Assembly (NCBI RefSeq): GCF_026168755.1
Contig: NZ_JAPFDR010000010.1
Coordinates: 17,487-81,486, forward strand
Reading direction: 5' to 3'
From: Clostridium sp.
GTDB lineage: Bacteria; Bacillota; Clostridia; Clostridiales; Clostridiaceae
DNA: 64,000 bases
Notes under the pieces: model-generated
Databases searched by the model: none
Seen by the model: the letters and a program-made list of their open reading frames with translations, nothing else
Told to the model about the DNA's origin: nothing
Shown: positions 3,035 to 36,946 of the stretch, piece by piece
Layout: each line of letters opens with the position of its first letter
How positions within the stretch are numbered: position 1 is the stretch's first letter
Program-made: the position numbers and the translations under genes

Positions 3035-3649
3035 TTAGTCTAAAAGTTCTTTGGAAATCATACGATTTTTGAAGTAATATTTTTTATCATGTTCATTAAC
3101 TTCACGAAGCACTTTACACGGATTTCCTACAGCAACTACATTAGAAGGAATATCCTTTGTTACAATACTTCCTGCTCCAATTACAACATTATCTCCTATT
3201 GTAATCCCTGGCAAAATAATTGCACCAGCTCCAATCCAACAATTCTTCCCTATAGTAATAGGCGCATTATATTGATAAGCCTCTTTTCTAAGCTCTGGCA
3301 ATATTGGATGTCCTGCTGTAGCTACAGTTACATTTGGGCCAAACATAGTATAATCTCCTACATAAATATGTGTATCATCTACTAATGTGAGATTAAAATT
3401 TGCATAAATATTCTTTCCAAAGTGAACATGCTTACCACCAAAATTTGCATGAAATGGAGGTTCAATATAACATCCTTCACCAATTTCAGCAAACATTTCT
3501 TTTAACATAGCTTCTCGCTTTTCTAGTTCTGTAGGGCGTGTCATATTAAAATCATATAGTCGATTTAAATATCCCAATTGCTCTTTCATTAATTCTTCAT
3601 TTCCTGGCAAATATAATTCTGTATTATGCATTTTTTCTTTTATACCCAT
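3035..3649 (-). CDS. Maltose/galactoside O-acetyltransferase (hexapeptide-repeat)
   Basis: 204 aa; IEPPFHANFG, hexapeptide repeats IGKNCWIGAGAIILPGITIGDNVVIGAGS, GNPCK. Confidence 0.9.
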   Translation of the reverse strand: MGIKEKMHNTELYLPGNEELMKEQLGYLNRLYDFNMTRPTELEKREAMLKEMFAEIGEGCYIEPPFHANFGGKHVHFGKNIYANFNLTLVDDTHIYVGDYTMFGPNVTVATAGHPILPELRKEAYQYNAPITIGKNCWIGAGAIILPGITIGDNVVIGAGSIVTKDIPSNVVAVGNPCKVLREVNEHDKKYYFKNRMISKELLD

Positions 3650-3795
3650 TTTCTCTCTCCCTAATATGTTTTAAAAAAATTTTTTTATACTATTAATTTA
3701 ACATTATTTTTTATGTAAATCTATAACATAATAATATTATTTTTCATAATTTTATAATAATAGTATATAGGTTTAATCATTTATTTCTCTTCATT

Positions 3796-3826
3796 AAAAA
3801 GAGACTTAGAATTACTACTAAGCCCC
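3796..3826 (-). terminator. Rho-independent terminator after segment 3 of the split oxidoreductase
   Basis: GGGGCUUAG/CUAAGUCUC stem followed by a U-tract on the - strand, 16 bp after the stop at 3842. Confidence 0.65.
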
Positions 3827-3841
3827 TATTATCTTTATACT

Positions 3842-4121
3842 TTATACTAATTTTTGCTCAAATATATTATCTAAATTAACCTTTTTAATTCTATCATTAA
3901 TTTCCTCTTTATCAGTAGTATAAAGACCTAACTCTTGCATTCTCTTAAAATAGCTAGCACCAGCAAAAGTATATCTATCCTTTCTACCTTCCCTAGTTTC
4001 AACTTTTTCATTAGCAAAAGAAATTAAATCGCCTATTGCTATAGAAGAAGGTAAAATTAATAGTGGCATTCCCAGCATTAACCTTACAGCATTATGACCG
4101 GCTAAGCTACCTGTACATATA
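3842..4121 (-). CDS. Segment 3 (C-terminus) of the interrupted GidA/MnmG-related FAD oxidoreductase
   Basis: Reads (HTEA)ICTGSLAGHNAV..., the G-xx-EA-xxxG-xxAG-xNA motif of the GidA family; continues segment 2 in frame across the repeated core. The ORF-track N-terminus MQSGLKISQFSH is element DNA. Confidence 0.9.
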
Positions 4122-4133
4122 GCTTCAGTATGA
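4122..4133. repeat. Element B att core, left copy (GCTTCAGTATGA)
   Basis: Identical to 14329-14340; encodes H-T-E-A on the - strand. Confidence 0.92.
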
Positions 4134-4191: not shown

Positions 4192-5790
4192 TTATATTTT
4201 ATTAGAGTATGTAATACTTATTGTATTACATTCACTACCCCAAATAATTTCTTGAAAAATATTCCTTAAAACTTTCTTTTTATCTTCATGATTCAAAAGA
4301 TCGAATGTGCTTTGAAAATTATTTATTTTATTTCTTATACTTTCAATATCTATTTCTTCATTTATGATAGTAGCATTTTTTTGTATTACACTATTTAATG
4401 ATTCTTCTAATTCTTTAATTTGAAAATTAATATCCCTAATTATTTGCTGATATTCTAAAATTATTTCTTTATCTAGATTAGAATCTAAAGTTTGTAATTG
4501 TAAAAACATATTTCCCTTTTTATTCTTTAGTTGTTGAATAGTATTGTTTATTTCATCTACTTCAGTATTATTATTTATTAAGCTATCATTTTTCAATATC
4601 TTATCCAACTCTTCTATTACTTTAGAAGAATCATATCCAACTACCTCTTCAACAATCCTTTTATCTACAATTGCTCCATTTAGATTTTTCATATTACAAA
4701 TTGTATTACTGCTATCTATTTTCATACTGCAAGCGTAATAATAAGGCCTTGTCCCATCTTTTAATTGACGAGCCTTAACTACATTCATTACAGATCCACA
4801 CTTACAACGTAATATACCACTTAAAAGTGCAACATTAGAATTACCTCTATTAGGTTTGTTATGTCTATTCTTAGATATTAACTCTTGTACCTTTATCCAA
4901 TTTTCAGCTGGTATTACACCATCATGCTTTGATGTTGCAGCAAGCTTTGGGTTATTTCTTGTTTTATCATTAGTCCTTTTGCAATAAGTTAAAATACCTT
5001 TTCCCTCTTCTTGTTTAGTTACAATGTAGCCTTGTTCTTCTAAAAACTCTGCAATATCCTCATTGCACATTGCATAAGTTGGATTAACAAGAACACTCAT
5101 AATTGAACTTTTATTAATATATCCACCCTTTTTGCCTCTAACCTTATTTTTAAGGAGATATTTATGAACCTTACTTACTGATTCAAATTCTAAATAAAGA
5201 TTAAACATCTGTATTACTTTATCTATTTCTTCCTCATTAATAACTAATGAACTATAATACCTAGTCTTACCATGTCCATCTATAAAAGATTCTCTTACAT
5301 GATTAAATCCCAAAGGAGCTTGACCTCCAAGCCACCTACCATCTCTAGCTAAAAGGTACATATTATCTGTAATACGTTGTATTAAATCATCTCTTTCAAA
5401 CTGAGATATACTAGCCAAAATAGTTAAAAACATAGTTCCCATTGGACTACTAGTATCTATTTTTTCTGTAACACTGTGTAATGCACATTTATATTCTTTA
5501 AAAATATCAATTGTCTCTAAAATATCTTTAACTTTTCTTCCAAGACGATTAAGTTGATAAACTATAACTGCATCTAACTCTTTTAGCTTAATCATATGAA
5601 TCATATTTTTAAATGCTGGTCTATCTGTATTTTTACCACTATAACCTTCATCTTCAAAGATTTTTATTTCTATATTTTTTTCTTCCATAAATATAAAGTT
5701 TATATAATCTTTACATCTATCGATCTGATTACCAATAGAGTCTCCCTTTCCTGTAAATTTTGACTTTCTCGAATATATAGCAATTTTCAT
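4192..5790 (-). CDS. Large serine recombinase (SpoIVCA/CisA-like), element B
   Basis: 532 aa; YSRKS catalytic motif, EDEGYSGKNTDRP, LNRLGR, recombinase domain GGQAPLGF, zinc ribbon CKC...YYYACS, coiled coil; intact. Confidence 0.95.
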   Translation of the reverse strand: MKIAIYSRKSKFTGKGDSIGNQIDRCKDYINFIFMEEKNIEIKIFEDEGYSGKNTDRPAFKNMIHMIKLKELDAVIVYQLNRLGRKVKDILETIDIFKEYKCALHSVTEKIDTSSPMGTMFLTILASISQFERDDLIQRITDNMYLLARDGRWLGGQAPLGFNHVRESFIDGHGKTRYYSSLVINEEEIDKVIQMFNLYLEFESVSKVHKYLLKNKVRGKKGGYINKSSIMSVLVNPTYAMCNEDIAEFLEEQGYIVTKQEEGKGILTYCKRTNDKTRNNPKLAATSKHDGVIPAENWIKVQELISKNRHNKPNRGNSNVALLSGILRCKCGSVMNVVKARQLKDGTRPYYYACSMKIDSSNTICNMKNLNGAIVDKRIVEEVVGYDSSKVIEELDKILKNDSLINNNTEVDEINNTIQQLKNKKGNMFLQLQTLDSNLDKEIILEYQQIIRDINFQIKELEESLNSVIQKNATIINEEIDIESIRNKINNFQSTFDLLNHEDKKKVLRNIFQEIIWGSECNTISITYSNKI

Positions 5791-5810: not shown

Positions 5811-5966
5811 CTAATGTTTATATTCTTCGTCATTAAATTTTTCAATCAACAATCTACAAACTTCAACTCCATATACATTAATTAATGCTCTTGCTATTGA
5901 CTTATAGGCCTCTTCCCCTATTGATTCCTTATTTTCTTTAAGTATTATAATATTGCCTTTTTTCAA
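5811..5966 (-). CDS. 51-aa protein upstream of recombinase B; candidate recombination directionality factor
   Basis: Manual: GGAG RBS, TTG start, MKKGNIIILKENKESIGEEAYKSIARALINVYGVEVCRLLIEKFNDEEYKH*; stop lies 21 bp before the recombinase start. Confidence 0.6.
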   Translation of the reverse strand: MKKGNIIILKENKESIGEEAYKSIARALINVYGVEVCRLLIEKFNDEEYKH

Positions 5967-6002: not shown

Positions 6003-6031
6003 TATTGTATTTAAATTATTATTGAAATGTT
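6003..6031 (-). promoter_or_regulatory. Sigma-K-like promoter (one mismatch)
   Basis: AACA-N16-AATACAATA versus the consensus mACm-N16-CATAnnnTA; AT-rich context lowers specificity. Confidence 0.45.
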
Positions 6032-6040
6032 ACAACTTAA

Positions 6041-6914: not shown

Positions 6915-8474
6915 CTACATTTCTTGTATTATACAATCATGCTCTTTAGTTTTTGTGTTATAACAAATAGCAACTGCTAATATTTTTTTATCTGAATATT
7001 CCTTTTTAAACTTAGAAACATATTCTTTCTCTAAAATTTGATTTATCGCAACTTCAGGTAATGTATCTTTTTTAAGTTCAACTATAAAAGGTATATCATT
7101 CTTTCTTCTTGGATGAAATGTAAAATCTGCATAGCCCTTACCTGTTTTCTCTTCTCTTTCAACTCTATAGGTGTCTCTAGCGGAAAGGTATGCTAAAGTA
7201 AGAACACATGACAAACTATTTTCATCATTATATTGAAGTATCGGTATTTCAGAGTTATGAATATCATGCAGTATATTTTCAACAGTTTTTGTATCACCCT
7301 TAACTGTTGCTTTAAGCATTTTTTTAGAGTTTTCAACTATTTCTGAAACATATCCAAATGATTCATCTTTTAAGGCCTTTTGGAACTCTTTCATTAATTC
7401 TTTGTTAGGAATTTTTAAATATCCATTGTTATAAGATAAAAATCCTAGAATTATCATTGCTGAATATATTTCTTCCTTTGTTTTAGGTTCATCTTGACCT
7501 GCTCTAAACTCTTCATCTATATAGATATCAATTTCTTCTCTAGAAACCATTTCTATAACATCATCACGAATTTCTAAGGTATTGTACTTTAAATATTGTG
7601 TTACTTCATCCATTGCACCAGTATTTGTCCAATAACTTTCACAATTATTATTCATAAGTGCTTTAACAACAGACCTTGGATTATACACTTTAATTCCACT
7701 TGCTGTTGTATAGCCATTATACCAACTTTCGAGTTCTCCAAAATCCATTTTTTTATTTTTTAAACACAGCTCTTTAACTTCTTCTTCTGTAAAACCAAAG
7801 AACTCACCAAAGCTTCTATCTCTTAAAAATGTATATTCATCAAACATATTCAGTGCACTACCACTTGAATATTTCTTTATTGGAAGTACCCCTGTCATAT
7901 AGCAAAGAGCTACATAATTTTGATCTTTTAAAAGGTTTCTTAAAAACTCTAAAAAGTCATTTTGATGCTCAGCAAATAAATTATTACAAAAAATATAATC
8001 CCATTCATCAAAGATAAATATAAATTTCTTTTCTGATTTTTGTAAAATTCTTTTTAAGCTATCAGTTTCATTTAAATTATCATTATTAACTAATTCTATT
8101 ATTTCTCGCTTTAATTCTATAATTATGTTATTTATATAATCTTGATATGTTTGCATATTATCACATATCTCATTAAAAGAAATAGCTATTACATTGTATT
8201 TATTTAAATTTTCTTCGTAACTATCTGATTTACTAACTTTAAGGTTATCGAAGATTTCTTTGGCATCTACAGCATTTCCATAATAAGCTCCTAGCATATC
8301 TGCAACAGATGACTTTCCAAACCTTCTTGGTCTAGTAATACAAAGGTATTTGCTTTTTGTAGAAATCCTTTTATTAACCATGTCTATTATTTCTGATTTA
8401 TCAACAAAATACTCTTCTAAAAATAATTCTTTAAAATTTTCAAAGGGTCTAATGCTATTTAAATATATTGCCAC
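6915..8474 (-). CDS. AAA-ATPase-like plus PD-(D/E)XK nuclease (PDDEXK_9/DUF1703-type) protein, copy 1
   Basis: RPRRFGKS Walker A, IFDEWD Walker B, C-terminal REEKTGKGYADF...IVELK. Confidence 0.85.
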   Translation of the reverse strand: MAIYLNSIRPFENFKELFLEEYFVDKSEIIDMVNKRISTKSKYLCITRPRRFGKSSVADMLGAYYGNAVDAKEIFDNLKVSKSDSYEENLNKYNVIAISFNEICDNMQTYQDYINNIIIELKREIIELVNNDNLNETDSLKRILQKSEKKFIFIFDEWDYIFCNNLFAEHQNDFLEFLRNLLKDQNYVALCYMTGVLPIKKYSSGSALNMFDEYTFLRDRSFGEFFGFTEEEVKELCLKNKKMDFGELESWYNGYTTASGIKVYNPRSVVKALMNNNCESYWTNTGAMDEVTQYLKYNTLEIRDDVIEMVSREEIDIYIDEEFRAGQDEPKTKEEIYSAMIILGFLSYNNGYLKIPNKELMKEFQKALKDESFGYVSEIVENSKKMLKATVKGDTKTVENILHDIHNSEIPILQYNDENSLSCVLTLAYLSARDTYRVEREEKTGKGYADFTFHPRRKNDIPFIVELKKDTLPEVAINQILEKEYVSKFKKEYSDKKILAVAICYNTKTKEHDCIIQEM

Positions 8475-8583: not shown

Positions 8584-10257
8584 CTAAGACACTTTAATCA
8601 TACAATCTTTTTTATAAAAAGTAATTCCATACTTAACTATATTAGTATATCCTTCTTCTAATAATTCTGCATCATACTGTTTTTCTTCTATTTGATTTAA
8701 AGCCTCATCACATTTATCTGACATTTCTTTAAAGTTTTTTGCCACTTTAAGCTCTAAAATAACAGCTTCTCCTCGTCTGTTAGGATATTTAATAATAATA
8801 TCACTTCTACCTTTTCCTGTTTCTCTGTTTGATTTAATTATATATCTCTTAAGGTTAACTAAAGTTCCTAGTAAGAATCCATGATAAAAGTTTTCATATG
8901 CATCATAAAAACTTATACTTTCAGTTAAAAGCTCCACTAATTCATTCTCAAAAGTTAAAGTATCTCCACCTAACATAGCTTCATACATTTTAGATAAATC
9001 CTTAGATTTTATTCCTTCATCAAACCAATTTAAAATTGTATTTTTATAAATTAATCTTATTTCTTCATTTGGAATAGCTAAAGTAATAAGTATTTCATTA
9101 TCTTCATTCATCCTTACACTTACTTTCTTTAAGTATCCTGTAAAAAACAAGAAATTCCATAAATTATCCATAGATGAGTCAATATCTGCATATATTATAT
9201 CTTCATGAATAACCTTTTCTATTGTTTTACCTGCTACAAGTTCTTCAATTTGTGCCTTTGTATCATCATCTGCTTTTTCTATTAATGATTTTACAATACT
9301 ATTAGAGCTTGTATTGGCCCAATATGATATTGGTAGTGCATTAATAGTTCCTGTTAAATCATATATAAATTTATCAACACTCCATGGATTATAAACATTA
9401 CATTCACCAAAAAGATATCCATTGTACCATTTCTTTATAATATCTTCTTTATCTTCAAATCCATAATATTTAAGCATATCAATTACTTCATTTTCTGTAA
9501 AACCAAAATACTCATCATAGTGAGTGTTCAATATAGAAATAATATTTAAGTTATTTAATCCAGTAAAAATACTTTCTTTAGATATTCTCAAGCATCCTGT
9601 CATAATTGCAAACTCTAAATATTCATTTGTCTTTAATGCAGATTCAAAAAGTGATCTTAAAAAATCTATCATTTCATTGTAAAATCCTTTAAAATATGAG
9701 TTTTCTATTGGAACATCATATTCATCTATTAAAATAATAACCTTTTTATTATGGTACTTCTCAAGGCATCTTGATAAAAACTTTAATGCTGTTACCATAT
9801 TACCTTTATTATCTTTTTTATTAATAATATTTAAATAATCTTCTTTTTCATAATGAAGCTTTTCTGAATTTAATACGTAATCATGTCTTTTAAACTCTTC
9901 AATAATCTCATTTACAAGACAATCATATGCTAATTCGTAATTAGGTTGCTTGGCTGATTTTAAAGAAAGATTTATAACAGGATATTGTCCCATATGTGAT
10001 TTGTACTTTTCACCTTCATTCATTATTTTAAGTTTATTGAATAAATATGAATTATCATCCTTACCATTTTCAAAGAAGTATTGTATCATGCTAATATTTA
10101 AAGTCTTACCAAATCTTCTTGGCCTAGTAAATAAATTAACTTTTGCCTTACTATCTAGAATATCCTTTATTAGTAATGTTTTATCTACATAATAATAATT
10201 ATTTAATCTTATATCCTTAAAATTATCTACACCTATTGGTAATGGTTTTAAATTCAT
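8584..10257 (-). CDS. AAA-ATPase-like plus PD-(D/E)XK nuclease protein, copy 2
   Basis: LPIGVDNF, RPRRFGKT, LIDEYD, SNRETGKGRSDI...ILELK. Confidence 0.9.
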   Translation of the reverse strand: MNLKPLPIGVDNFKDIRLNNYYYVDKTLLIKDILDSKAKVNLFTRPRRFGKTLNISMIQYFFENGKDDNSYLFNKLKIMNEGEKYKSHMGQYPVINLSLKSAKQPNYELAYDCLVNEIIEEFKRHDYVLNSEKLHYEKEDYLNIINKKDNKGNMVTALKFLSRCLEKYHNKKVIILIDEYDVPIENSYFKGFYNEMIDFLRSLFESALKTNEYLEFAIMTGCLRISKESIFTGLNNLNIISILNTHYDEYFGFTENEVIDMLKYYGFEDKEDIIKKWYNGYLFGECNVYNPWSVDKFIYDLTGTINALPISYWANTSSNSIVKSLIEKADDDTKAQIEELVAGKTIEKVIHEDIIYADIDSSMDNLWNFLFFTGYLKKVSVRMNEDNEILITLAIPNEEIRLIYKNTILNWFDEGIKSKDLSKMYEAMLGGDTLTFENELVELLTESISFYDAYENFYHGFLLGTLVNLKRYIIKSNRETGKGRSDIIIKYPNRRGEAVILELKVAKNFKEMSDKCDEALNQIEEKQYDAELLEEGYTNIVKYGITFYKKDCMIKVS

Positions 10258-14328: not shown

Positions 14329-14541
14329 GCTTCAGTATGACCAACAAATAACCCTGCTTTTTCACCTGCACATAAAAGATTATCTACTCCAATAACCTTC
14401 ATATCATTAGCCCTTGGTGCCACAGATAAATATCTTATAGAATTACCCTTACTTCCTGCATAAGGATCAACATACTTAGCATATTCAAGACCTGGGATCT
14501 TTCTAAGCTTTTCAAGTGGATAATAAGTTGTCATAAGCTTT
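14329..14541 (-). CDS. Segment 2 (213-bp middle piece) of the interrupted oxidoreductase
   Basis: (HA)KLMTTYYPLEKLRKIPGLEYAKYVDPYAG...DNLLCAGEKAGLFVGHTEA; in frame with segments 1 and 3 across both cores. Confidence 0.92.
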
Positions 14542-14599
14542 GCATGTGCAGTGTGTACAAAAGTGCAACCTTTGCAACAATATTTGCCCCAATACGTTT

Positions 14600-17330: not shown

Positions 17331-19031
17331 TTAATCTTTTATTTTTATTAGACAATCCTTTTTATAAAAGGCTATCCCATATTTGAAAATATTCTTATAA
17401 CCTTCACTTCTAAGCTCCATCTCATATTTCCTATCTTCTATTTGCTCTATAGCTTCATCTGCTTTTTTTTCTAAATCATCAATATAATTTGCTATTTTAA
17501 ACTCTATTACTATAGCAATTCCCCTTCTTGAAACTGACTTAATAAATAAATCACTTCTTCCGGTTCCACCTTCTCTATTAGATTTAACTATATATCCTTT
17601 CATATTAGAAAGAACTCCTGCTAAAAATCCATGATAGAAATTTTCATATGCATCGTTAAAGCTTATTGTATCTAAAAGTAAATTGTTTAATTCTACTTCA
17701 AAAAGCTCTGGTTCTTTATTTACTATAGCATTAAACATTTTTGTCATATCATAAAGTTTTATCTGTTCATTAAACCATTTAAGTATCTTAGTTCTAAAGA
17801 TATACTTTACTTCTAAGTTTGGTATTGCTAGCTCTACAAAGTTTTCTTGGGTATTCTCATCCATTCTTTCACTTATCTTTTTGAAATATCCTGTAAAGAA
17901 CATAAAGTTCCATAAGTTATCTAAATTATCATAAACATCTTCGTAGGTTATATCTTCATGTACTGGCTTTTCTATAGTTTTTCCTTCTATTAAAGCCTCT
18001 ATTTCTCCTTTTGTTATGTCATCTGCTCTTTCTATAAGACTTTTTACTATACTGTTTGAGCTAGTATTTGCCCAATATGATTTAGGTAATCTATTTATAT
18101 TAGCCTTTAAGTCATCAACATATTGCATTACACTCCAAGGATTATATACATTTGTTTCTCCAAATATATATCCATTGAACCACTGCTTTATAGTTTCATA
18201 CTTTTGTTGCATATTATAATCATCACAAATTTTTACAACCTCTTCATCTGTAAATCCAAAATGCTCTGCATATCTATCATCTAAAATTGATATGATTTTC
18301 AAGTTATTTAATCCAGTAAAAATACTTTCTTTTGAAATACGTAAGCAACCTGTAATTACTGAAAACTCTAATGATGGATTTGTTTTTAATGCTGATTCAA
18401 ATAGTGATCTTATAAAGCTTATCATTTCATTATAAAATCCCTCAAAAAATGCATTTTCTAAAGGTACATCATATTCATCTATTAAAATGATTACTTTTTC
18501 ATTGTGATATTTATTTAAGCAATTACTTAAAAATTTTAGTGCTGTAATATATAATGACATATCCTTATCATTATTTACAATTTTCATAAAATGTTCTTTC
18601 TCAGCTTTTAATACATCACTTTCTATTATATATTTATGTCTTTTAAATTCATTTGAAATTTCTTCTCTGATGCATTGAAATGCTAAATCCAAACTTCTTT
18701 GCTTTGCTGATTTAAGTGAAAGATTAATTACAGGATACTTACCTATATACTTAGTATATTTTTCACTTTCTCCCTTAATATTTAATCCTTCAAAAAGATA
18801 AGAGTTATCTATTTTCTCTCCAGTAAATTCATCTCTTCTATCTTCAAAATAATATTGAAGCATACTCATGTTTAATGTTTTACCAAACCTTCTTGGTCTA
18901 GTAAATAGATTTACTGCAGCTTTATTATCTAATAAATCCTTTATAAGAAGAGTTTTATCTACAAAATAATATCCCCTTGTTATTAACATTTCAAAATTAT
19001 CTATTCCTATTGGAAGTGGTTTTTGCTCCAT
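17331..19031 (-). CDS. AAA-ATPase-like plus PD-(D/E)XK nuclease protein, copy 3
   Basis: Visibly very similar to 8584-10257 (RPRRFGKT, LIDEYD, YWANTSSNSIVKSLIE, SNREGGTGRSD...IEFK). Confidence 0.9.
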   Translation of the reverse strand: MEQKPLPIGIDNFEMLITRGYYFVDKTLLIKDLLDNKAAVNLFTRPRRFGKTLNMSMLQYYFEDRRDEFTGEKIDNSYLFEGLNIKGESEKYTKYIGKYPVINLSLKSAKQRSLDLAFQCIREEISNEFKRHKYIIESDVLKAEKEHFMKIVNNDKDMSLYITALKFLSNCLNKYHNEKVIILIDEYDVPLENAFFEGFYNEMISFIRSLFESALKTNPSLEFSVITGCLRISKESIFTGLNNLKIISILDDRYAEHFGFTDEEVVKICDDYNMQQKYETIKQWFNGYIFGETNVYNPWSVMQYVDDLKANINRLPKSYWANTSSNSIVKSLIERADDITKGEIEALIEGKTIEKPVHEDITYEDVYDNLDNLWNFMFFTGYFKKISERMDENTQENFVELAIPNLEVKYIFRTKILKWFNEQIKLYDMTKMFNAIVNKEPELFEVELNNLLLDTISFNDAYENFYHGFLAGVLSNMKGYIVKSNREGGTGRSDLFIKSVSRRGIAIVIEFKIANYIDDLEKKADEAIEQIEDRKYEMELRSEGYKNIFKYGIAFYKKDCLIKIKD

Positions 19032-25100: not shown

Positions 25101-28100
25101 TTATAACTTAATAGTAAATCTCTTTGCTTCTCTACTAAAAAGCTTACATATCGCATCATACACAACTCTTTTAACTTTGACTTCTGATCCTATTATATAA
25201 GGAACTCTATAGCTTCCAGTATCAACATCATCAAAACAAACTTCCCACTTAGAGTACTTCACCACGGTCTCCCCTGTTCTATCTATGCCAATTATCCCTT
25301 CACCATTATCTGTAATCTTAATTCCGAGAACATCCAAAATTTCTCCCCTAATACTTAGATAATCATATGGTCTAAATGTTAAATAAATATCCTCATTAAT
25401 CTTAAGATTAGAAGCAACTAATAGTGAATTTCTTTTAAGATAATCTGGTTTAATAAACTCATTATTTTCATCATATAGCCTATACTCTTTTTTAAGTTTC
25501 ATTAAAGGAACAACATCCTCTTTATCTGTGAATACTACACCAGAAATTACTATTGTTGAATCTATATTCTCTATTAAATTATTCTTATACTTTTCTCTTT
25601 TATTATAACAACGTTCATAGTAAGCTAATGAAATCCATTCTTCAGAATACACATCAGTTATTGAGTCAGTAACTTCTTCAGGCATATTAATATCCAATGG
25701 ACGAGGAATAATTGAGTTGCAATTGGCAATTAAATACTCTATATCATCAATCAATATTTCATTCATTTTTTCTTCTATTTCACTTAAAAATGGTAATTCT
25801 ACAAATCCATTGAGGAATGCTTCTACTTCACGACTCATATGCTTCATTAATATATCATAAAAATAAACATTTGGTACAAGTACACTATATGATCTATCAT
25901 ATATTATATCTTGTAGATTTTCTCGTGTAGACTTATCGTTTATTTCACGAAAATAATTCTTAGCAATATTCCCAATATCAACACCGCTATCCTTTAGTAA
26001 AGCAACCCTATTATCTGTCTCAGTTAAGATTTCTATAAAATAATTAATACTGTCATCTCCACCATCATATGAGTGAACATACTTTTCGTAATTTCTTTCA
26101 TCTTTCAGCCCAGTAATGTTCCTAATCAAGTAGTTTACAATCCCATTATCAGTTGGATAAATACTTAGTAAATCATTAATTAAATTGTTTTTACGTAACT
26201 CTTCTTCAGTAAACCACTTTCTAATAAGCCACAATAAAATAATTAGTGAGTAGTCAATGAATCTATCCTTCTTTTCAATATAACGCTTGAAAGGTTTTAT
26301 GAAACATATACGATACTCTGGCTGCTCTAACATTTTGTTAAGCGAAGATATAATCCATCTATAACGATTTGCTTCACCATATTTTAAACGAGTAAGTAAT
26401 AGAAACATTGCTTTTTCTATAGAAGAGAACTCTTTAGACTTTTCAACTATTTCCTTATAATTATAATCATATTGTCCTGATAGTCTAAAATTAATTATCT
26501 CAAACAATGACTCCCAATAATGAAGAATTAATTCACCATCATATCCAACCGCTGTTAACGCATTTATTATTTTATCACCTACTGCCAAATTATAGTCAAC
26601 CCGATAAAGATTATTATAAAAATATTCAAAAAAATACTCCTCTGCAACTTCTCTATTATATTCTACTGCTTTAATATAATATCCTGTTTCAGTTAACCTC
26701 TGATACCACCCATCTTTATGATTCAAAAACATCGCTATGTAAATATACGCCATAACTTCTGAATTTAAATCTAAAGCATCAATAACTTTTAGTATTCTTT
26801 CTCTACTTTCATCATCGCTCCTTCTATCATATGTGTGCTTTATTAGGTTGTTGATAAACATTTTTGAGTCATCACTCAACTCACTAATTGACTGCAAGTA
26901 TATATACAATCCTTGAATATCACTTTCATTTATTCCAAAATCAACAATATACTCAAGTATTTCCTCAAAAGACATTACATCAAAACTTAAACGACTCACA
27001 TGTTTATCATAACTAAACTTCTTTCCTCTACCTATATCATATGTTCTATTTGAACTACAATTTAATATAATTTCAGAATTAAATTCTACGTTCAGTTGCT
27101 CACACAATCCTTTTATTTTCTCATAATCATCTTCATAGATTCCTTTCGGATATCTATTTATCAATTCTCTCATAGAAACTCTAGCTAATTCCTTTTGAGA
27201 ATTATTACTTAAAACTCGTATGTTGTTTAAATAACTACTAATAGTGCTAGGACTAATTTCATTAGGTCTCGTTTTAAAAAGAGAATTTTCTATAATAGGA
27301 TCTACTTCACTATTCATACTCTCTAAAAGATTATCTAAACTTTCTTCTAATGCCCAATAATTTGATGAATCCAATAGCTCATAACTCAGATATGTCATAG
27401 CAATATCTCTGTTAGTTCTAGCCAAAACCTCGAACCACTCTTTTGGATAAGTTTGTGTACTTCTGCCATCAGTATGATATACAACGGCATCGGCTAATGG
27501 CTTTAGTCTTAATATATTCTGAATACCAGTTTCCTCATCAATTTTATAAATACTCTCGACACTATCTATCAGTCGACTTAGTGTACGATCCTTTCTAAAT
27601 GAATAAGACAATAGATACTCTACACCTCTTCGAAATTCAACTTTTGCTTTGTCTAACCGACCACCCTTTGAAAGGATAATTGCATGTTTAAAACTATAAT
27701 CAGCCAAATATGAATAAAATCTTCGTTTATCCTCATCGCCTATTTTTTCTTCAAATATTTCTGTTAAAACTGTACAATTTATATCATTTGCTATTACTAA
27801 GAATAACTCGAAAAGTTTGTACGTAGGTAGTGGACCGCAAGTAGCCCCCATTAGCGTAGACATAGTTTTACTTGACATCTCAGCAATCAAACCAAGTATT
27901 GTACGCCATGTAGATTCAGTTGATACTAGTTCAAGTGGTGATACTATTGATTCAAATATAATTGTCTTATAATTGTACAAATCACAAGTACGCGGTTTAC
28001 CCTTAAAGCATTCCATGTCCTTTGTTAACCATAAATATGCTTCTATTAGTTTTGACTCATCAATAGACTTATTTTCTTTTGCTTCAACAATTACTTTACT

Positions 28101-30869
28101 CACTTTAAATACATATATTAACCAATTATAATACCAATTTCTATTTTCAGCACACTTAATAAAATCATTTAATTTATTTGAATGGTTTGTAATAATCCAT
28201 TCAATGTTACTAATATAGTAATTTAGCGCAATTAAAGTGTCATTAGAGTATGAATCTGAGTCCAATAATATCTCAAGAGCAGTATCAAGATATTGTTCAT
28301 CAATTATATACTTACCCTCGAATACATCTATACTTTCTACCCAATGTTCTTGTTCCTCAAGTTGGTTTACCAGTGCTTTTAATTCTTCAATTAATCCTCT
28401 CCTTGAATATTCAGTTATTATCACCGTCCTCTTATCATATGCGTCTTTAACTGCAACTTTTTCAATCTTATCAATCATATTTCGGCCAGTATCTAAACAT
28501 GCACAAATAAAATATCTATACTCTTCTAATTGCTCATCATGACTCTTTCGCACTACTTGATTAGATTTCTTTGATTCTATGAGTAACCTTATATACTCGT
28601 CCCATTCAGGAATTACATTATTTTCAGAGCAGAGATAACAGACTTTTAATCCTTCACTGCAACTTAGTGCATTTCGTCCTTCGTAAACTAAAATATTTTC
28701 AAGTTTTTCGAACCCATTAATAAGACCTAATCCAAGATAATAATACTGAGAAACCTCATCAAATGAATATTCTAGACTGTAAATCATATTACTCAATTCA
28801 GTACATATGATTACAGCGCCATAATTTTTAGCTTTACAAGATGCCTTCATTAAAATCTCAAAATTGCTTTTTATAAAATTAATGTTATTACCATAAAAAA
28901 CGCTGTCAACAACAAATTCCTTATTGCAATATTCTAAAATTTCTTCATAGCGTTTAGCTTCAAAAAGAAGTCCAAGTAAATTTAGATACGACTTTCTATC
29001 TTCATAGAATCCCTTTTTTTTCAACCAGTCTATCAAGTATGAATAAATGGCTTTATCTACACTAACTTCATTTTCTTCTAGTAATTCAAGAACATATCTT
29101 CTAAAACTTTCATGATAAATTTTATAACATCCAGAGCAACTACTATAAGATAATATACTTCTAATAGCCTCTAAACTTTTAGAAACATATACACCTAAAG
29201 AAGTAATCTCCTTAAGTTCAGATTCTGTTAATGGAAATGGAGAACCTGCCAATATTTGTGGCACCTTTTGACTTTCAGAGAGTTTTGTCATTAAAAATGA
29301 ATAGTAATTTTCCAAATTGATATTATAAGCTGGGAATCCTTCAATCAATTCTCTTGTTATCATAACATGAGTATATTTAGATAATTCGTTTACTAAATAC
29401 GTTAAATATAATGGATTCCCTTAACTTTTTTCAATCAATAAGTCTGATAACATACAGTGAAAATCCAGCTCAACGTCTGTTAAGCTATTATTTGTAATAA
29501 ATTCTTTTACTTCACCAATGTCCCAAGGTTTCACTGAAAACTCCTTAAAGTTATGATTGCACAAATTAATAACCTCAGTAATTGGCTGTGAGGCTAAAAT
29601 AACTTTTACGTTGTCAGGAAACATCAGCCGTGATATTACTTCCACAATTTCAGTCTCAATTTGTTTCATTGTTTCTTTATGAAAACTATATATTCTACCA
29701 ATATGATCTAATCCATCTACAATTAATACTACTTCTTCTTTTATATTATTAATTAAAACTTGCAATTCATCAAAATCCACCCCATATTTCGAAATCTTAT
29801 ATGACTCTAAGTGTGGAAATGCCTCAATAATGGCATTTATTAAATTCGCTAAGAATACATTTATAGTTATTCTTTCTTTTTCATATAGATCATCTATTCC
29901 CGTATAACAATAATGCTGAATAACTTTAATTCCTTGTTCATCGAGAAAGCTTATAAAGTTTTGAATGAACCAAGACTTTCCTGAACCTGGTTCACCAAGT
30001 AGACATACTTTATTGTTTGTAAATACAAAATCCTTAAATTCATGATATCTTGTTGAATTTAGTACATTAATAGATCTATCAATCTTAAAACTCTGCTCAA
30101 TGTTTCCGTAACTTTTCTTCAGACCTAAGTCAAAAATCAATTTATTTAGTTCAATAACTTCACCTCTTGCACGTAGTCCTTTAATGATATATATCAAGTG
30201 CATGGAAACATCAACTACTGATTTCTTATCATTTGGAAATTTCCCAATACCAAAGAGCCTTAGGCTATTTATAACCAAATTCTCTAAGTCACCAGGATTA
30301 GTAAAATCTGTACTTGATTTTGGAAGATTCACTTCAATAGTTAAATCATTAATAAATTTCTGAAATTCATCTCTATTAATATCCGTGGACTTCCCTCTTA
30401 ATCGTCTCCATGATGAAATAGGAATTCCATCTGAAGGCCATATACTTTCAAGATTAATTTTTAACACTTTAACATCATTACTTTTATACAAATTAGTTAC
30501 ATCTTGCTCTACTAAAAAATCAATGTCTTGAGAATCCATAAGCAACTCCCATGCCAAACAAATCCTGATATCAATATTCTTGTCTTTCGGTAATTCTTGC
30601 CATGATCTAAATAATGTATCTAGTGCTAAATCGTATTTTTCAGAAGACAAATCTGCTTTTTCAAATATTTTATTATCACTATACTTAATCTGTTTCTTCA
30701 TTATTGAATCACTTGTAATAATAGTAATATCATCAAACTTATCATTTTCAGATTCTTTTTGATCAATCTTGAAGATAGCACTGTCATCAGTTAATAACAT
30801 ATTTATAATATGATATGCCGTAAATAAATCTTGGTATTCATATCCTTTATGAGCATCTAATAAACTCAT
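25101..30869 (-). pseudogene. Avs (AVAST)-like nuclease-STAND ATPase-helical sensor, 1922 codons with one in-frame stop
   Basis: N-terminal GYEYQD...DD...KQIK nuclease, Walker A GEPGSGKS, Walker B IVDGLDH; TAA at 29421-29423 in EKS*GNPLYL, then in frame into the 1420-aa ORF. Confidence 0.8.
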
Positions 30870-31138: not shown

Positions 31139-31888
31139 CTACTCTAATCTTCTCATCTTTATATAAACATAAATACCACCATCAACATCATTACACACCA
31201 CATCATTGCCAGTATAAATAAACCCTGGATAAAGCTTCTCAAAGACTTCTCTTTCCCCTTGGTTTTGTGATAGCTCATATAATTTTTTATTTGAATACTT
31301 ATAATCATTAATCTTTGGCAATGGTATAATTATATTCTTAGATTGACTCCATCTTTTCTTTCCTCTAGGATCCTTTGAAAGATAATTTGCTAATTCTTCA
31401 AAACCTAGTTCATTAGCTTGCATTCTATTTGCATTAGCTGTGCCTTTTCCCCATAGTTCTTCTGCCTTATCTCTATCCATTCCAGATATTATAATGTGAT
31501 GGTGGATTCTTGTTTTTGTTCTTTTATCATCTGTAGCTTCTCTATATTCTAAAACTGCTATATATTTTAATTCATCAAGTCCATTCCTCTTCCTAAAGTT
31601 TTTAATTCTCCTAATATAATTATTTCTATCACGAATAGCAGTCTCTTCACTATTTGGAAGATTAGCTGCATCATAACTAAGGCTAACTATTAAATCCTTA
31701 TTATCAAAGTTAGCATGAATTCTTCTTCTTAAATTCTTTCTTGCATTTTTATCATTTAGGTTCTTTTGTTCCTTTCTACTCTCCTTCTTTTTCTTTGATC
31801 TACTTTTCTTTTGTTCATATTTAGAAATAGGATATATTTCTACTTCTAAATATTTACCACATAGAAATCTCTTCTCTCTAATAGCCAT
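31139..31888 (-). CDS. HUH rolling-circle replication initiator-like protein
   Basis: RIHHHIII (HUH) and LANYLSK (catalytic Tyr); GGGG RBS; intact. Confidence 0.75.
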   Translation of the reverse strand: MAIREKRFLCGKYLEVEIYPISKYEQKKSRSKKKKESRKEQKNLNDKNARKNLRRRIHANFDNKDLIVSLSYDAANLPNSEETAIRDRNNYIRRIKNFRKRNGLDELKYIAVLEYREATDDKRTKTRIHHHIIISGMDRDKAEELWGKGTANANRMQANELGFEELANYLSKDPRGKKRWSQSKNIIIPLPKINDYKYSNKKLYELSQNQGEREVFEKLYPGFIYTGNDVVCNDVDGGIYVYIKMRRLE

Positions 31889-32489: not shown

Positions 32490-32798
32490 ATTTTATCCCT
32501 CCACATTTAATAATTTAATTTCATTTTCTAGCACCAATGGAACTTTATAATTAATAATTATTTCTTTTACCATATCTATAGAAATTGCATTATCTATTAC
32601 TGTAGTCACTGGATTCTTTAAATTATTGGTTGCTCTTTTTTAAGCCACCCTTATAAAATCAATTTCTTCCTCAAATCCATACTCAACCATTCTTCGGAAC
32701 CAATCCTTATACTTAGTTCCTATTTCTAAAAACTCATCTAATTCTCTACCACTTACTAATTGTCTACCTTCTCTTTCTATTATCTTAATTAATTCCAT
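32490..32798 (-). pseudogene. AntA/AntB phage antirepressor remnant
   Basis: MELIKIIEREGRQLVSGRELDEFLEIGTKYKDWFRRMVEYGFEEEIDFIRVA*KRATNNLKNP; TAA at 32640-32642. Confidence 0.75.
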
Positions 32799-32918
32799 TA
32801 CTTAATCACTCCATTTCTAATTATCTCCTTAGCTAATACTTATTAAATTCACCATTTAACAAATTCTTTATTATGTTAATCCTTATTGGTTAAGGCTAAT
32901 TAGCCTATTTTTCATAAG

Positions 32919-33074
32919 TTAATCAAAGTACTTACAATCATTTTCTTCAAGATAATCAACAATTAAATCTATTTCCTCAGACGTAAATTTTTGTATTGCA
33001 ATATCTGTTAATATATCTATTAACTTATTTTCTAAAATACTCATATCTTCTGGATAAATACATGTAATCGTCAC
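32919..33074 (-). CDS. 51-aa acidic protein divergent from recombinase A; candidate recombination directionality factor
   Basis: Manual: GGGGG RBS, GTG start, MTITCIYPEDMSILENKLIDILTDIAIQKFTSEEIDLIVDYLEENDCKYFD*. Confidence 0.65.
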   Translation of the reverse strand: MTITCIYPEDMSILENKLIDILTDIAIQKFTSEEIDLIVDYLEENDCKYFD

Positions 33075-33101
33075 TATCTCGCCCCCTATAAATTAATAAT
33101 C

Positions 33102-33130
33102 TATACTATGCTTGTACACTTCTTTTGGTT
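33102..33130 (-). promoter_or_regulatory. Sigma-K-type promoter for the 51-aa ORF
   Basis: AACC-N16-CATAGTATA, a full match to mACm-N16-CATAnnnTA, 28 bp before the GTG. Confidence 0.65.
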
Positions 33131-33257
33131 ACACTTAGTAATACTTTATACACTAAAGAAAAGATTGAGATTGTATTTATCTAAAGAACTTATTAGGATA
33201 AATCTAAAATATATTTATTTTAAAATAATGTTGCATATATTAAACTGAGGTGATTAG

Positions 33258-34895
33258 ATGAAGATTGCTATTTACTCAAGAAAGAGCAAATACACAGGAA
33301 AAGGTGATTCCATAGGTAACCAAATTCAAATGTGTAAGGACTACATTGAGACTAATTATAGAAATAAAGACCATGAATATATTATTTATGAAGACGAAGG
33401 ATTTTCTGGTGGAAATATCAACAGGCCAAAGTTCCAGAAGCTTCTTAATGATATTAAAAAAGAAAAATTTGATATTCTAATATGCTATAGACTTGATAGA
33501 ATTAGTAGAAATGTATCTGACTTCTCCACTACCTTAGATGAAATTCAAAGCTATGGAGTTGATTTTATAAGTGTTAAAGAACAATTTGATACAACTACTC
33601 CAATGGGAAGAGCTATGATATACATAGCATCAGTATTTGCCCAACTTGAACGTGAAACCATTGCTGAACGCGTAAGAGATAATATGATTGAACTAGCCAA
33701 GTCAGGAAAATGGTCTGGAGGTAGAACCCCTCTTGGCTTTGATAGTGAAGGTTCATCTTATATTGATGAAGAAGGAAATGAAAGAAGATTAGTTAAACTT
33801 GTGAAAAATGATGAGGAGCTAAAACTAGTTAATCTTATTTATGATACTTATCTAAGAGAAGGTTCATTGCATAAAACAGAAACTTACTTTGCTTCTCACA
33901 ACATTAAATCAAATAGAAATATCCTTCTTGAAAAAACATCATTAAAGGTAATCTTAAATAATCCTGTTTATGCAATAAGCTCTCCAGAACTTAAGAGGTG
34001 GCTTGAGGATGATGGATGGAATGTATATGGTGAACCTGATGGCAAACATAGCTATCTTAGTTATAATAAGACAAAGCACGTAACTAGAAATGGGAAATCA
34101 ATGAAAATACCAAACGATAAAGAAAATTGGATAGCTGCAATAAGTAATTGCCCTGGTATAATTGAAGCAGATAAATGGATTCAAGTACAAGAACAATTTA
34201 AAGGCAATAGAGGTTCATTCCCTAAAAAAGCAAGAACCCACGATGCAAAACTTGTTGGAAAAATATATTGTGCCCACTGTAATAACTACATGCAGGTGAT
34301 TCATGGAAATATTAAAAAAGATACAGGAAAAAGACAACACTACTACTCCTGCTCATTAAAAAAGAAATCCAAAAATGAATTATGCAAAAACAAAAATGTT
34401 AAGATAGATGCTGTAGAAGATTTATTACTCCAAGAGCTAGAAAGACTAGATAAAAATAAAAAAAGCTATATTCAAAGCCTTAAAAAGAAAAATAACTCAG
34501 TTAAGAAAAATAAAGATGTAAAACAAAAGCAGATATCAATACAAAAAGAAATTGATGCCAAACAAAAAATACTTAATAATTTAATAGATAAGTTAGCAAT
34601 TGCTGATGACCTAGATGATATAATAATACAAAGAATAAGATCCACTAAAAATGAAATGCAAGAGTTACAGAAACAACTAGATGAAATATCAAAAGAGATA
34701 GAAGATTCAAACTACAAGAAATTAGACCTAGACTTTATAAAAAGCTTACTAGAAAAGTGTGCTGATATAAGAGAACTAGATTCTAATGAACAAAGACTCC
34801 TAATAGGTGTTTTAGTAGATAAGATTCTATGGGATGGTAATACTCAAGATGTAACAGTATATTTCATTGGAAGTGGAGACGTAAAAAAAAAGTAG
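33258..34895 (+). CDS. Large serine recombinase (SpoIVCA/CisA-like), element A
   Basis: 545 aa; YSRKS, EDEGFSGGNINRP, RLDRISR, GGRTPLGF, zinc ribbon CAHC...YYSCS; intact with GAGGTG RBS. Confidence 0.95.
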   Translation: MKIAIYSRKSKYTGKGDSIGNQIQMCKDYIETNYRNKDHEYIIYEDEGFSGGNINRPKFQKLLNDIKKEKFDILICYRLDRISRNVSDFSTTLDEIQSYGVDFISVKEQFDTTTPMGRAMIYIASVFAQLERETIAERVRDNMIELAKSGKWSGGRTPLGFDSEGSSYIDEEGNERRLVKLVKNDEELKLVNLIYDTYLREGSLHKTETYFASHNIKSNRNILLEKTSLKVILNNPVYAISSPELKRWLEDDGWNVYGEPDGKHSYLSYNKTKHVTRNGKSMKIPNDKENWIAAISNCPGIIEADKWIQVQEQFKGNRGSFPKKARTHDAKLVGKIYCAHCNNYMQVIHGNIKKDTGKRQHYYSCSLKKKSKNELCKNKNVKIDAVEDLLLQELERLDKNKKSYIQSLKKKNNSVKKNKDVKQKQISIQKEIDAKQKILNNLIDKLAIADDLDDIIIQRIRSTKNEMQELQKQLDEISKEIEDSNYKKLDLDFIKSLLEKCADIRELDSNEQRLLIGVLVDKILWDGNTQDVTVYFIGSGDVKKK

Positions 34896-34943
34896 ACTCT
34901 CTACTTCCTGATTTATTCCAATTGTTGCAAATTCAACCACACA

Positions 34944-35728
34944 GCATGACCAGTATCAAGTAAAACTATATTTTCTGCAAACTCCTTAAGTGCATATTGT
35001 TGACATACCTTTGTACTAAGCTTACCATAATTTACATCTTCATCAGGAACCTTTAAAACAACTACCCCTGTTTTATCTAGTTGCTCTCTAATTTCATTAG
35101 ATAAACTTTCCTTTGCAAGCTTACAAGATCCTGAAAATGCTCCAAGTGCATCTCCATCTCTTTCACCTTGAATATCTGAAACTCCACATCTTGCACTTAT
35201 ACTTAATCTTGGTCCAAAAGCAGGGCAACGCAATATACACATAGAACATCCATTACCATATCTTAAACAATTCCCCATAGGTCCTGTTGAACCAGTTGTT
35301 TCAATAAACACATCACCTTTAACGTAAGTGTCATCACTTAATAAAATTCCCCTTATCTTATTGTTTTCAACATCAACATCTTTAACACGACTCTCTAAAT
35401 GAAGATGTATTCCTAATGATTTCAAATAATCTCTTACTACACCTTCAATAATATTAACATCATAAAGAGTTGCATGTTTATGACCAGGGAATTCTATATT
35501 AGCATGTCTTGCACATTTATCTGTTATTTCAATTAAGTCTCCTGCCCCTAAAGCTATAAGCTCTTCTGATGCAGTATAACGTCCATTATTTCTCATTATA
35601 CCACCAACATTACCAAGTCCAAGTAAAAGATCTGTTTTTTCATAGATATGGACATCTGCTCCAGCTTTCTTCGCTGTTATTGCGGCAGCACAGCCTGACC
35701 AACCTCCCCCAACAACTACTACCTTCAT
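34944..35728 (-). CDS. Segment 1 (N-terminus) of the interrupted GidA/MnmG-related FAD oxidoreductase
   Basis: VVVGGGWSGCAAA FAD-binding motif; native sequence ends at DTGHA (codon 262); the tail VWLNLQQLE* to 34913 is element DNA. Confidence 0.92.
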
Positions 35729-36717
35729 ATTAATCTCCTCCCCTCAAAAATACCTCTTGGACTAGCTTGTACTTTACAAAATCTCTTTACTCTATGACCT
35801 GAAAATCTAGCTGTACAACTTCCGCATACACCTTCTCCACAACACATCTTAAAATTATTGCAACATGATAAATCTATATCTTTTCTATCTAAAGAATCTA
35901 AAAAATCAATAACACTATAAGTTAATATATCTGCTCCAGCTATATGGATTAAAGATATATTATTATATTTAACAATAGATTTTATAGCAACCTTTCCCTC
36001 TGGTGATAACTCTCCTTTTTCTATTAAATTCATCTCTTGAGGTACTATATTTAATTTATCTAACCACTCCGAAACATATATTTCCTTAAAAGGTTGTTTA
36101 TCTAATAAAAGTGTTACTGTATTACCATTTTCGACTAATCTGTCAATTACAGGCATCATAGGTGCCATACCAATACCTCTAGCAATAACTAAAGCCTCAT
36201 TATTTTTTTGTTTTCTTATGTTTTTTAATCCAAATACTCCGTTCCAATAAGGTCCTCTTATTGTTATATTTCCTCCAGACTCAATATTTAATAATTGCTT
36301 AGTCTTAATTCCTCTTATTTCTATCATAATAGATATTATATTAGTTTCTATATCTGATTCTAAAATCGAAATAGGAACATCAAAATATACATTTTCTTCA
36401 CTTCTAATAAAAATAAAGCTACCAGGCCTTGCTAAATCTATTACAAGCTTATGCGGTGCTTCAAATTTAATTAATAATACATCATCTGGATATAATACCT
36501 TTTCACATACTTTACAAGTATACGTTTTTCTTTGCTCTTTTGCCTTGTTTCCATTATCATGAAGTTCTTGATATATACATACTCCCTTCCAATTTAAACA
36601 ATCACAAAAATGACTTCCTTGCAATTGTGAACAAAGAATACATTCACCCTTCTCAGCTAAGTGACACGGGCAAAATTCAGTCCCTGCATCTATACAATCA
36701 ATTGTCTCCTTAAACAT
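35725..36717 (-). CDS. Ferredoxin-NADP reductase/PyrK-like FAD/NAD-binding Fe-S protein
   Basis: RPGSFIFI, RGPYWNG, ARGIGMAP, C-terminal MCCGEGVCGSC [2Fe-2S] motif, Cys-rich N-terminus; 4-bp overlap with the oxidoreductase start. Confidence 0.85.
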   Translation of the reverse strand: MFKETIDCIDAGTEFCPCHLAEKGECILCSQLQGSHFCDCLNWKGVCIYQELHDNGNKAKEQRKTYTCKVCEKVLYPDDVLLIKFEAPHKLVIDLARPGSFIFIRSEENVYFDVPISILESDIETNIISIMIEIRGIKTKQLLNIESGGNITIRGPYWNGVFGLKNIRKQKNNEALVIARGIGMAPMMPVIDRLVENGNTVTLLLDKQPFKEIYVSEWLDKLNIVPQEMNLIEKGELSPEGKVAIKSIVKYNNISLIHIAGADILTYSVIDFLDSLDRKDIDLSCCNNFKMCCGEGVCGSCTARFSGHRVKRFCKVQASPRGIFEGRRLI

Positions 36718-36946
36718 TTAAACTCCTAAAGTAATACTATACACTATATAGATTATTTTAAAAATTTCTTTTTGTTACTATAAGTCCTCTGATATATAAA
36801 ATATTCTACTATATTTTAATAAATAAACTTATTACATGTTTAATAAGAAATTATTCATATATTTAATATAATTTATAAACATAAAAAGCCACAACATATA
36901 TAAAATAGTTAACTATCTTATATATGTTGTGACTAAAATGTCTTCT

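Follow-up and report, generated by a model that had tools for sequence, protein, structure and literature searches.

A candidate directionality factor gene behind a sigma-K-type promoter, beside the recombinase of an element that splits a Clostridium flavoprotein gene

The small gene, its recombinase and its promoter

The window analysed here is a stretch of 64,000 nucleotides from Clostridium sp. (NCBI RefSeq assembly GCF_026168755.1, contig NZ_JAPFDR010000010.1, positions 17,487 to 81,486 of the forward strand), in which a gene for a GidA-like FAD oxidoreductase is split by two elements, A and B, and in which element A carries side by side the gene of a large serine recombinase (LSR), recombinase A, and an unannotated open reading frame (ORF) of 51 codons. 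The closest named relatives of the source genome (Clostridium sensu stricto) are C. disporicum, C. lentum and Clostridium sp. CAG:221. An original prediction, made from the letters of the DNA, had described this ORF as acidic and helical, missed by the ORF track, preceded by a GGGGG ribosome-binding site and placed back-to-back with recombinase A, and each of these features was borne out. The ORF lies at 32919-33074 on the minus strand and starts with GTG at 33074, the GGGGG site lies at 33082-33086 on the same strand, 7 nt 5' of the start codon, and the recombinase gene runs divergently at 33258-34895 on the plus strand.

The encoded protein, which we propose as the candidate recombination directionality factor (RDF) of recombinase A and whose family we call A1, has a computed pI of 4.05 and a net charge of -10. 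AlphaFold2, given an alignment of 13 sequences, predicts an extended segment at residues 1-11 followed by two helices at residues 12-29 and 32-44 (mean pLDDT 82). For the protein and 12 of its homologues, no meaningful match was found in Pfam, NCBIfam, PHROGs and PDB sequences or by Foldseek against the PDB. In comparison with four close relatives (loci L038-L041, among which C. disporicum, L041, and C. lentum, L039, have nearly identical modules), the codons of the ORF show eight synonymous and three conservative non-synonymous changes, and the ribosome site of the relatives reads GGAGG instead of GGGGG; judged by this codon variation, the unannotated ORF is a real gene under purifying selection. 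Directly 3' of its stop codon lies a palindromic hairpin, AGGCTAATTAGCCT (32893-32906), also kept in the relatives, for which a role in termination, weak or in both directions, is conceivable.

Recombinase A is a protein of 545 aa with Resolvase, Recombinase and Zn_ribbon_recom domains and a coiled-coil-bearing C-terminal region, and its nearest solved structure is the catalytic domain of the TP901-1 integrase. Its gene ends 49 bp from the junction of element A.

Upstream of the small ORF, we find a -35 element GTAACC (33127-33132, minus strand) and, after a spacer of 16 nt, a -10 element CATAGTATA (33102-33110, minus strand) that fits CATAnnnTA and ends 27 nt 5' of the GTG. The original prediction, that AACC-N16-CATAGTATA agrees with mACm-N16-CATAnnnTA at every position, thus holds at 33102-33130 on the minus strand, the AACC occupying 33127-33130. 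Sigma-K promoters of C. difficile differ from sigma-E promoters in having AC at -35 where the latter have ATA (PMC3789822), and the site described here combines AC at -35, a spacer in the range of 16-17 bp, CATAnnnTA and the correct placement upstream of a gene. Transcription is predicted to start near 33095, which would give a leader of about 21 nt, resembling the leaders of sprB (20 nt; PMC4191935) and CD1234 (14 nt; PMC5025042). No sigma-70-type site was found upstream of the small ORF on its strand.

Within the window, the pattern mACm-N16-CATAnnnTA has two matches where 1.19 are expected, and 29 of 100 shuffled sequences give at least two, so that the motif by itself is at chance level and any significance has to come from the comparison across genomes. 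That comparison is informative. A pattern set in advance, AC-N16-17-CATAnnnT, occurs in 5 of 13 upstream regions of diverged homologues against a background of 1% (P ~1e-7), and a relaxed pattern, in which the -10 element may also begin with A, picked as were other relaxed promoter patterns after the data had been seen, occurs in 9 of 13 against 3.2% (P ~2e-11). With more homologues included, AC-N16/17-[C/A]ATAnnnT is retained in 13 of the 20 distinct upstream regions, and eight of these 13 have GTAAC. When the window is aligned with L038-L041, homology begins at TGTAAC and extends from there as far as the hairpin, taking in the -10 element, ribosome site and ORF, the sequence 5' of TGTAAC being unrelated, and in the diverged homologues the spacers can no longer be aligned while the -35 and -10 elements are retained. 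It could be argued that motif and ORF are chance features of AT-rich intergenic DNA, as the chance frequency of the motif in the window and the shortness, GTG start and lack of a family match of the ORF would allow, but the conservation of the gene in 13 genera, its purifying selection, its position beside the recombinase and the promoter footprint effectively refute this explanation.

The A1 protein family and its recombinase lineage

On the evidence of its sequences, A1 is an unnamed conserved family of small proteins that travels with one recombinase lineage. Homologues at 30-43% identity and of 47-61 aa, many of them with GTG or TTG starts, are present in 27 other genomes from 13 of the 59 genera of Clostridiaceae, and a profile search of 1.8 billion representatives yielded 113 A1 clusters, 105 of which are small proteins with a median length of 53 aa and a median pI of 5.0. 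The members share the pattern V-x-V-x-[LY]-P-x-D-x-x-x-L-E-x-K ... K-L-x-x-x-E-[IL]-x-x-L-I-x-x-L. When one A1 member was compared by tblastn with 50,697 phage records, no match was obtained at E <= 0.1. One locus (L034, genome G299) carries two A1 paralogues in tandem, at 4514-4645 and 5001-5135, upstream of one recombinase.

The association with the relatives of recombinase A (clade A) was followed in 19 other genomes; in genome G208 the flanks were covered to 3 kb. A clade-A LSR is divergent from the A1 ORF in 18 of the 19, and in 16 of the 19 a divergent clade-A LSR (45-93% identity) lies at a distance of 150 nt to 15 kb: in ten genomes no more than 2.5 kb separate the ORF from the LSR (45-92% identical to recombinase A), and in six further genomes it lies at 4.6-15 kb on the same contig, inside prophage-like lysogeny modules. 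In two of the 19 the LSR is found at a greater distance. The GidA-like gene also harbours two mini-elements, L037 with 4.65 kb and L036 with 5.8 kb, in which nothing but the LSR gene, the small ORF and between two and four cargo genes is kept, and no A1 gene was found in the genomes whose elements in this host gene use other LSR lineages (L049, L050). The 51-aa protein is thus small, encoded in the same element as the recombinase and inherited together with it, as is typical of the RDF class, and the linkage, the retention in mini-elements and the absence from elements with other LSR lineages form together the pattern expected of a cognate accessory factor. Upstream of the clade-A recombinase genes themselves, no promoter was found to be conserved beyond close relatives.

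The surroundings of the small ORF point to a phage ancestry. In close relatives, what is left of an Xre-type regulator and of an ImmA-like HEXXH protease lies between the ORF and the recombinase; C. lentum (L039) has these remnants at 4421-4961, ahead of the ORF, and an intact AntA antirepressor of 234 aa (3356-4060) after it. A deletion of about 470 bp has removed the Xre and ImmA remnants from the window, which leaves the sporulation-type promoter as the only visible one, and downstream of the ORF there are fragments of an AntA/AntB antirepressor (32493-32798), which the intact gene of C. lentum identifies as a pseudogene. The TP901-1 type of lysogeny module has the integrase, an ImmA-like protease and the repressor on one side and an Xre-like regulator, the RDF and the antirepressor on the other, and the module of element A looks like a remnant of this type, in which the phage control genes have decayed and the promoter and RDF gene have been kept. 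In the Lactococcus phage TP901-1 itself, with its integrase and Xis (Orf7), the layout is the same, and the proven excisionase sits in the early operon beside the antirepressor, in parallel to the position of A1 next to AntA. TP901-1 Xis (64 aa) is, however, not homologous to A1 (hhalign probability 0.1%), and TP901-1 is a functional phage without sporulation control.

Given this ancestry, the 51-aa protein might instead be a regulator of the decayed phage early operon, ribbon-helix-helix-like or of another kind, which could for example have partnered AntA or repressed the recombinase gene. Its association with the recombinase would then reflect nothing but shared ancestry in the lysogeny module. 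The AlphaFold2 topology and the V-x-V-x-L-P-x-D...L-E pattern do resemble ribbon-helix-helix proteins, prophage contexts place the A1 ORF between Xre-type regulators and replication genes, it stands ahead of the intact AntA gene in L039, and at another locus (L043) the start of a clade-A recombinase gene, 57% identical and inserted at the same site of the host gene, is overlapped by an ORF of 63 aa (4819-5010) that is typically ribbon-helix-helix. However, neither a ribbon-helix-helix family nor any other was matched in Pfam, NCBIfam, PHROGs or PDB sequences, nor any structure by Foldseek, and the strong acidity of the protein, together with the median pI of its family, fits DNA binding poorly. 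Moreover, the ORF is retained in mini-elements stripped of all phage regulatory genes, it is intact and under purifying selection in the window where AntA is a pseudogene, and a lysis-lysogeny regulator would have no obvious use for a sporulation-type promoter. We therefore regard a role as a regulator as unlikely, if still deserving of serious weight, and retain the directionality factor as the preferred reading.

The split flavoprotein gene and a shared promoter class

The gene for the GidA-like protein, intact in most relatives (423-433 aa), lies here in three pieces on the minus strand. Its 5' exon (34944-35728) extends to about codon 262, where element A is inserted (14542-34943; 20,402 bp), a listed ORF at 34913-35728 running past the exon into the element; a middle exon of 213 bp (14329-14541) separates element A from element B, which is inserted at about codon 340, and the 3' exon follows at 3842-4133. 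A core of 5 bp, CATGC, marks the two junctions of element A (14542-14546 and 34944-34948), and a core of 12 bp, TCATACTGAAGC, those of element B (10,207 bp), at 4122-4133 with a second copy at 14329-14340. Joining in silico at both cores gives a single frame of 425 aa that is 93.6% identical to the intact protein of a relative. The frame is thus restored at short identical cores and the LSR is encoded at the edge of the element, as is the case for gene-intervening elements.

The promoter in front of the small ORF has a counterpart in front of the target gene. The operon to which the GidA-like gene belongs has a promoter-like sequence, GTAACA-N15-AATAATCTA (36749-36778, minus strand), 31 nt 5' of a PyrK-like gene (35725-36717), which is conserved in three loci of relatives (L003, L004 and L008); no link of the operon to sporulation was found in the C. 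difficile regulon paper. The pattern GTAAC[AC]-N15-16-[CA]ATAnnnTA has 15 matches in the genome of 3.29 Mb, six of them with a downstream ORF, and three of these six are the target operon, the 51-aa ORF of element A and a small ORF of element B; as the pattern was derived in part from the same sites, this count is illustrative and no clean test.

The small ORF of element B (5811-5966, minus strand) also encodes 51 aa, starts with TTG and stands just upstream of recombinase B (4192-5790), in the same direction. Its promoter-like sequence, GTAACA-N16-AATACAATA (6003-6033, minus strand), recurs in homologues of 51 or 52 aa as a footprint GTAACA-N16-AATAnnnTA, in which the -35 and -10 elements are conserved and the spacer has diverged. 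The ORF falls in 14 clusters at 63-94% identity that are always just upstream of a same-direction LSR; elements with B-like recombinases in G004 and G029 were found to lack it. AlphaFold2 predicts an N-terminal extension and a helical hairpin (pLDDT 72), a layout similar to that of A1. Homology between the two could be ruled out (hhalign probability 1.7%), which makes the ORF of element B an analogue and not a homologue of A1. The original prediction had seen in it the equivalent ORF of element B and both elements as apparently wired to the same sporulation sigma factor; the ORF is indeed conserved, linked to its recombinase and preceded by a conserved footprint, but the two ORFs are not homologous and the -10 element in element B begins with A. 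Should this footprint act as a promoter, synthesis of recombinase B itself would be confined to sporulation, as in the case of spoIVCA.

Elsewhere in the genome, strict sigma-K-type matches precede genes for a CwlC/CwlD-like amidase, CdeC-like and cysteine-rich DUF4489 proteins, a rubrerythrin-like protein and a GH25 lysozyme. These genes appear to be of late mother-cell type, which is suggestive as a local calibration of the sigma-K motif. One region of less than 4 kb (contig C64, 82.5-86 kb) has three such strict motifs, which precede the genes of a CdeC-like cysteine-rich protein, a DUF4489 cysteine-rich protein and an asparagine-rich protein of 285 aa; the region is probably a gene cluster for the spore coat or exosporium.

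These matches bear on the possibility that the small protein is indeed an RDF but that its promoter is independent of sigma-K, being read by sigma-E with SpoIIID, as in the case of CD1234, or by another factor, so that excision would be timed earlier or not be developmental at all. The -10 elements of sigma-E and sigma-K promoters are nearly identical (PMC3789822), many members of the A1 family have A as the first base of the -10 element, and TGTAAC, by reading, resembles the SpoIIID box of C. difficile, KRTAACARK (PMC5025042), at 7-8 of 9 positions. The promoter of yabG in the genome of the window, furthermore, has a -10 element CATACTATA but no AC at -35, which leaves the local sigma-K consensus uncalibrated. 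On the other hand, AC at -35 with a spacing of 16-17 nt marks sigma-K, the ATA of sigma-E is absent (PMC3789822), and the strict matches in the genome include late mother-cell-type genes (amidase, CdeC-like, DUF4489, rubrerythrin-like), so that we think a promoter of this other kind quite improbable and continue with the sigma-K-type reading.

The flavoprotein gene seems to attract insertions. At least 12 other genomes have a clade-A LSR at about codon 262 of this gene, both orientations being represented, and other LSR lineages occupy it at codons ~10 (L050), ~88 (L049, G017) and ~340 (element B, G004, G008, G029). By these sequence comparisons, the gene is a hotspot for the insertion of serine recombinases of at least four lineages, at loci that include L068 and L070. 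Sister elements that combine an A1 ORF with a clade-A LSR have other targets: one (L060, genome G313, 7536-8138) splits yabG, which encodes a sporulation protease, the match to TIGR02855 ending at profile position 221 of 283, and two (L032, 2762-3007; L033, 2337-3146) split the gene of an SsuA-like ABC substrate-binding lipoprotein. In the genome of the window, the intact SsuA-like gene (contig C97, near 94537) has a strict sigma-K-type motif, AACA-N16-CATAATATA, 41 nt upstream, and yabG, the target of the published yin element, has been described as SigK-controlled (PMC10747680). The targets of the clade would thus fit late mother-cell genes.

As to its cargo, which is in part of defence type, element A is without phage structural genes and encodes, among others, a STAND protein (NACHT/Cap4-nuclease), a Fic protein, a methylase, AAA/PDDEXK proteins, an IS transposase and a Rep-like protein. 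The STAND gene (25101-30869) consists of two ORFs, the first of 482 aa with Cap4-nuclease and NACHT matches and the second of 1420 aa without a family match, and may be an Avs-like defence gene broken by a stop codon, as it had been read originally. Three paralogues with AAA-ATPase_like and PDDEXK_9 domains are spread across both elements (6915-8474, 8584-10257 and 17331-19031). A protein of 249 aa (31139-31888) matches the rolling-circle Rep family PF23343 (E 5e-9) in an element that has no phage or conjugation genes.

Proposed mechanism, known systems and implications

LSRs need a directionality factor for excision, and the known sporulation-linked RDFs are small and acidic, from which we infer that the 51-aa protein is the cognate RDF of recombinase A and that its gene is read from a late mother-cell promoter of the sigma-K type; we put the probability of this reading at roughly 0.6. 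In the proposed mechanism, elements A and B reside in the GidA-like gene, whose frame of 425 aa can be recovered by recombination at the 5-bp and 12-bp cores, as the in silico joining indicates. Recombinase A alone, in line with the established behaviour of LSRs, would carry out only integration (attP x attB). During sporulation, the GTAACC-N16-CATAGTATA promoter would yield the small acidic helical protein, which, by analogy with SprB, might bind the hinge of the recombinase (DNA-binding domain 2/coiled coil) and thereby direct excision (attL x attR) in the mother cell, which is terminally differentiated. As the target operon has a promoter of the same type, expression of the repaired gene would coincide in time, and the germ-line copy in the spore would keep the element. 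The original prediction had seen in the promoter and ORF sequence evidence for developmentally timed excision, and the comparison lends support to this idea through the conserved gene, its link to the recombinase, the geometry of the promoter and the promoter of the target operon.

Several observations weigh against this reading. No sequence similarity was detected between A1 and any of the proven RDFs compared (TP901-1 Xis and SprB), and the predicted extended N-terminus with two helices is also the topology of ribbon-helix-helix regulators. The linkage has gaps, as one of the 19 other genomes (G316) carries the small ORF without a detectable clade-A recombinase, one clade-A element (L042) has no A1 ORF within 5 kb, and in L043 the ORF is only probably present, 5.6 kb from the recombinase. 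On the side of the promoter, to the chance frequency of the motif within the window, the later choice of the relaxed patterns and the yabG promoter has to be added that 7 of the 20 homologues, several of them inside phage early operons, have no recognisable motif, and it is the resemblance of its promoter that suggests a sporulation role of the target operon.

Among the closest systems known to date is SPbeta, which interrupts spsM of B. subtilis and, like element A, combines an LSR (SprA) with a small acidic helical RDF (SprB) (PMC4191935, PMC5499854, PMC11722253). SprB has 58 aa, is acidic and is made from a mother-cell promoter (PMC4191935, PMC11722253), and it binds DNA-binding domain 2 and the coiled-coil hinge of the recombinase (PMC11722253). 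The sprB gene has its own mother-cell promoter of the sigma-E/K type with a leader comparable to that predicted for A1, and it is also part of the phage early operon, as is A1 in prophage contexts; SprA and SprB suffice for excision in sporulation, to which the linkage of A1 and LSR forms a parallel (PMC4191935). In contrast to A1, whose function we deduce, that of SprB has been demonstrated by experiment and cryo-electron microscopy, and host gene and genus are different. The skinCd element in sigK of C. difficile (CD1231 and CD1234) is, like element A, non-lytic and equipped with an LSR, and its small acidic RDF, of 72 aa and pI 5.5, has a mother-cell promoter that times excision (PMC5025042). 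CD1234, which we compared with A1 by description, is driven by sigma-E and SpoIIID with ATA at -35, whereas the A1 promoter has AC and is of the sigma-K type, and skinCd, unlike element A, interrupts sigK itself. The gin island in gerE of B. cereus ATCC 10987 (GirC and GirX) offers an example of non-phage cargo in a late mother-cell gene (PMC5595907), and one gin island has more than one serine recombinase. GirX, with 42 aa and no known motif, is unannotated in some genomes (PMC5595907), as is the A1 ORF here. Family and host are different, however, and both gin genes are expressed in sporulation, whereas the promoter of recombinase A is not conserved.

Another of the closest systems is yin, the yabG element of C. 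botulinum V73, which shares with element A the Clostridium host, an LSR (HEQ52_18485) and a small acidic candidate RDF (PMC10747680), and whose target yabG is also split by L060, a sister element of the pair of small ORF and recombinase in the window. The putative yin RDF, HEQ52_18460, has 53 aa and a pI of 4.9, and its gene comes after those of XRE regulators, behind a putative SigK promoter (PMC10747680), its assignment being a prediction from an AlphaFold complex only (PMC10747680). Two adjacent ORFs of 53 aa (HEQ52_18460 and HEQ52_18465) are reminiscent of the two A1 paralogues in L034. By comparison of descriptions only, the yin RDF is probably a member of A1; none of the A1 representatives clearly fits its reported start (MV), length and pI. 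Unlike yin, the locus described here has an uncharacterised GidA-like gene as its target, has lost the phage regulators and has two elements in one gene. Elements with a mother-cell-timed RDF are already known from SPbeta, skinCd and gin, and as a prediction from yin; new are the target gene, its double occupancy, a sizeable candidate RDF family tied to one LSR clade and the shared promoter class.

Taking these findings a step further, we tentatively entertain a broader picture, which has somewhat less in its favour than against it. A1 might be a widespread RDF family (about 105 clusters) of one TP901-1-like clade of Clostridium LSRs that has repeatedly settled in late mother-cell genes (GidA-like, yabG, SsuA-like), its phage modules having decayed to recombinase, factor and sigma-K-type promoter. 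As two unrelated pairs of factor and recombinase share a rare promoter class with the target operon, the locus might then be a switch with two locks and its own timing, set on a sporulation gene that has gone unrecognised and that four independent recombinase lineages have singled out.

RDFs are hard to find and are sought as reversible switches for genome engineering, and A1, if the proposed role is right, would provide a candidate RDF with many diverged orthologues for a whole clade of LSRs. It would also connect the yin element of C. botulinum, published as a single case, with a far larger family, and it would flag the uncharacterised two-gene flavoprotein operon, with its PyrK-like Fe-S/FAD protein and GidA-like enzyme, as having a probable late sporulation function. 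The idea that elements excised in sporulation are commonly timed by mother-cell promoters on their RDF genes, in Clostridium as in Bacillus, would then gain support.

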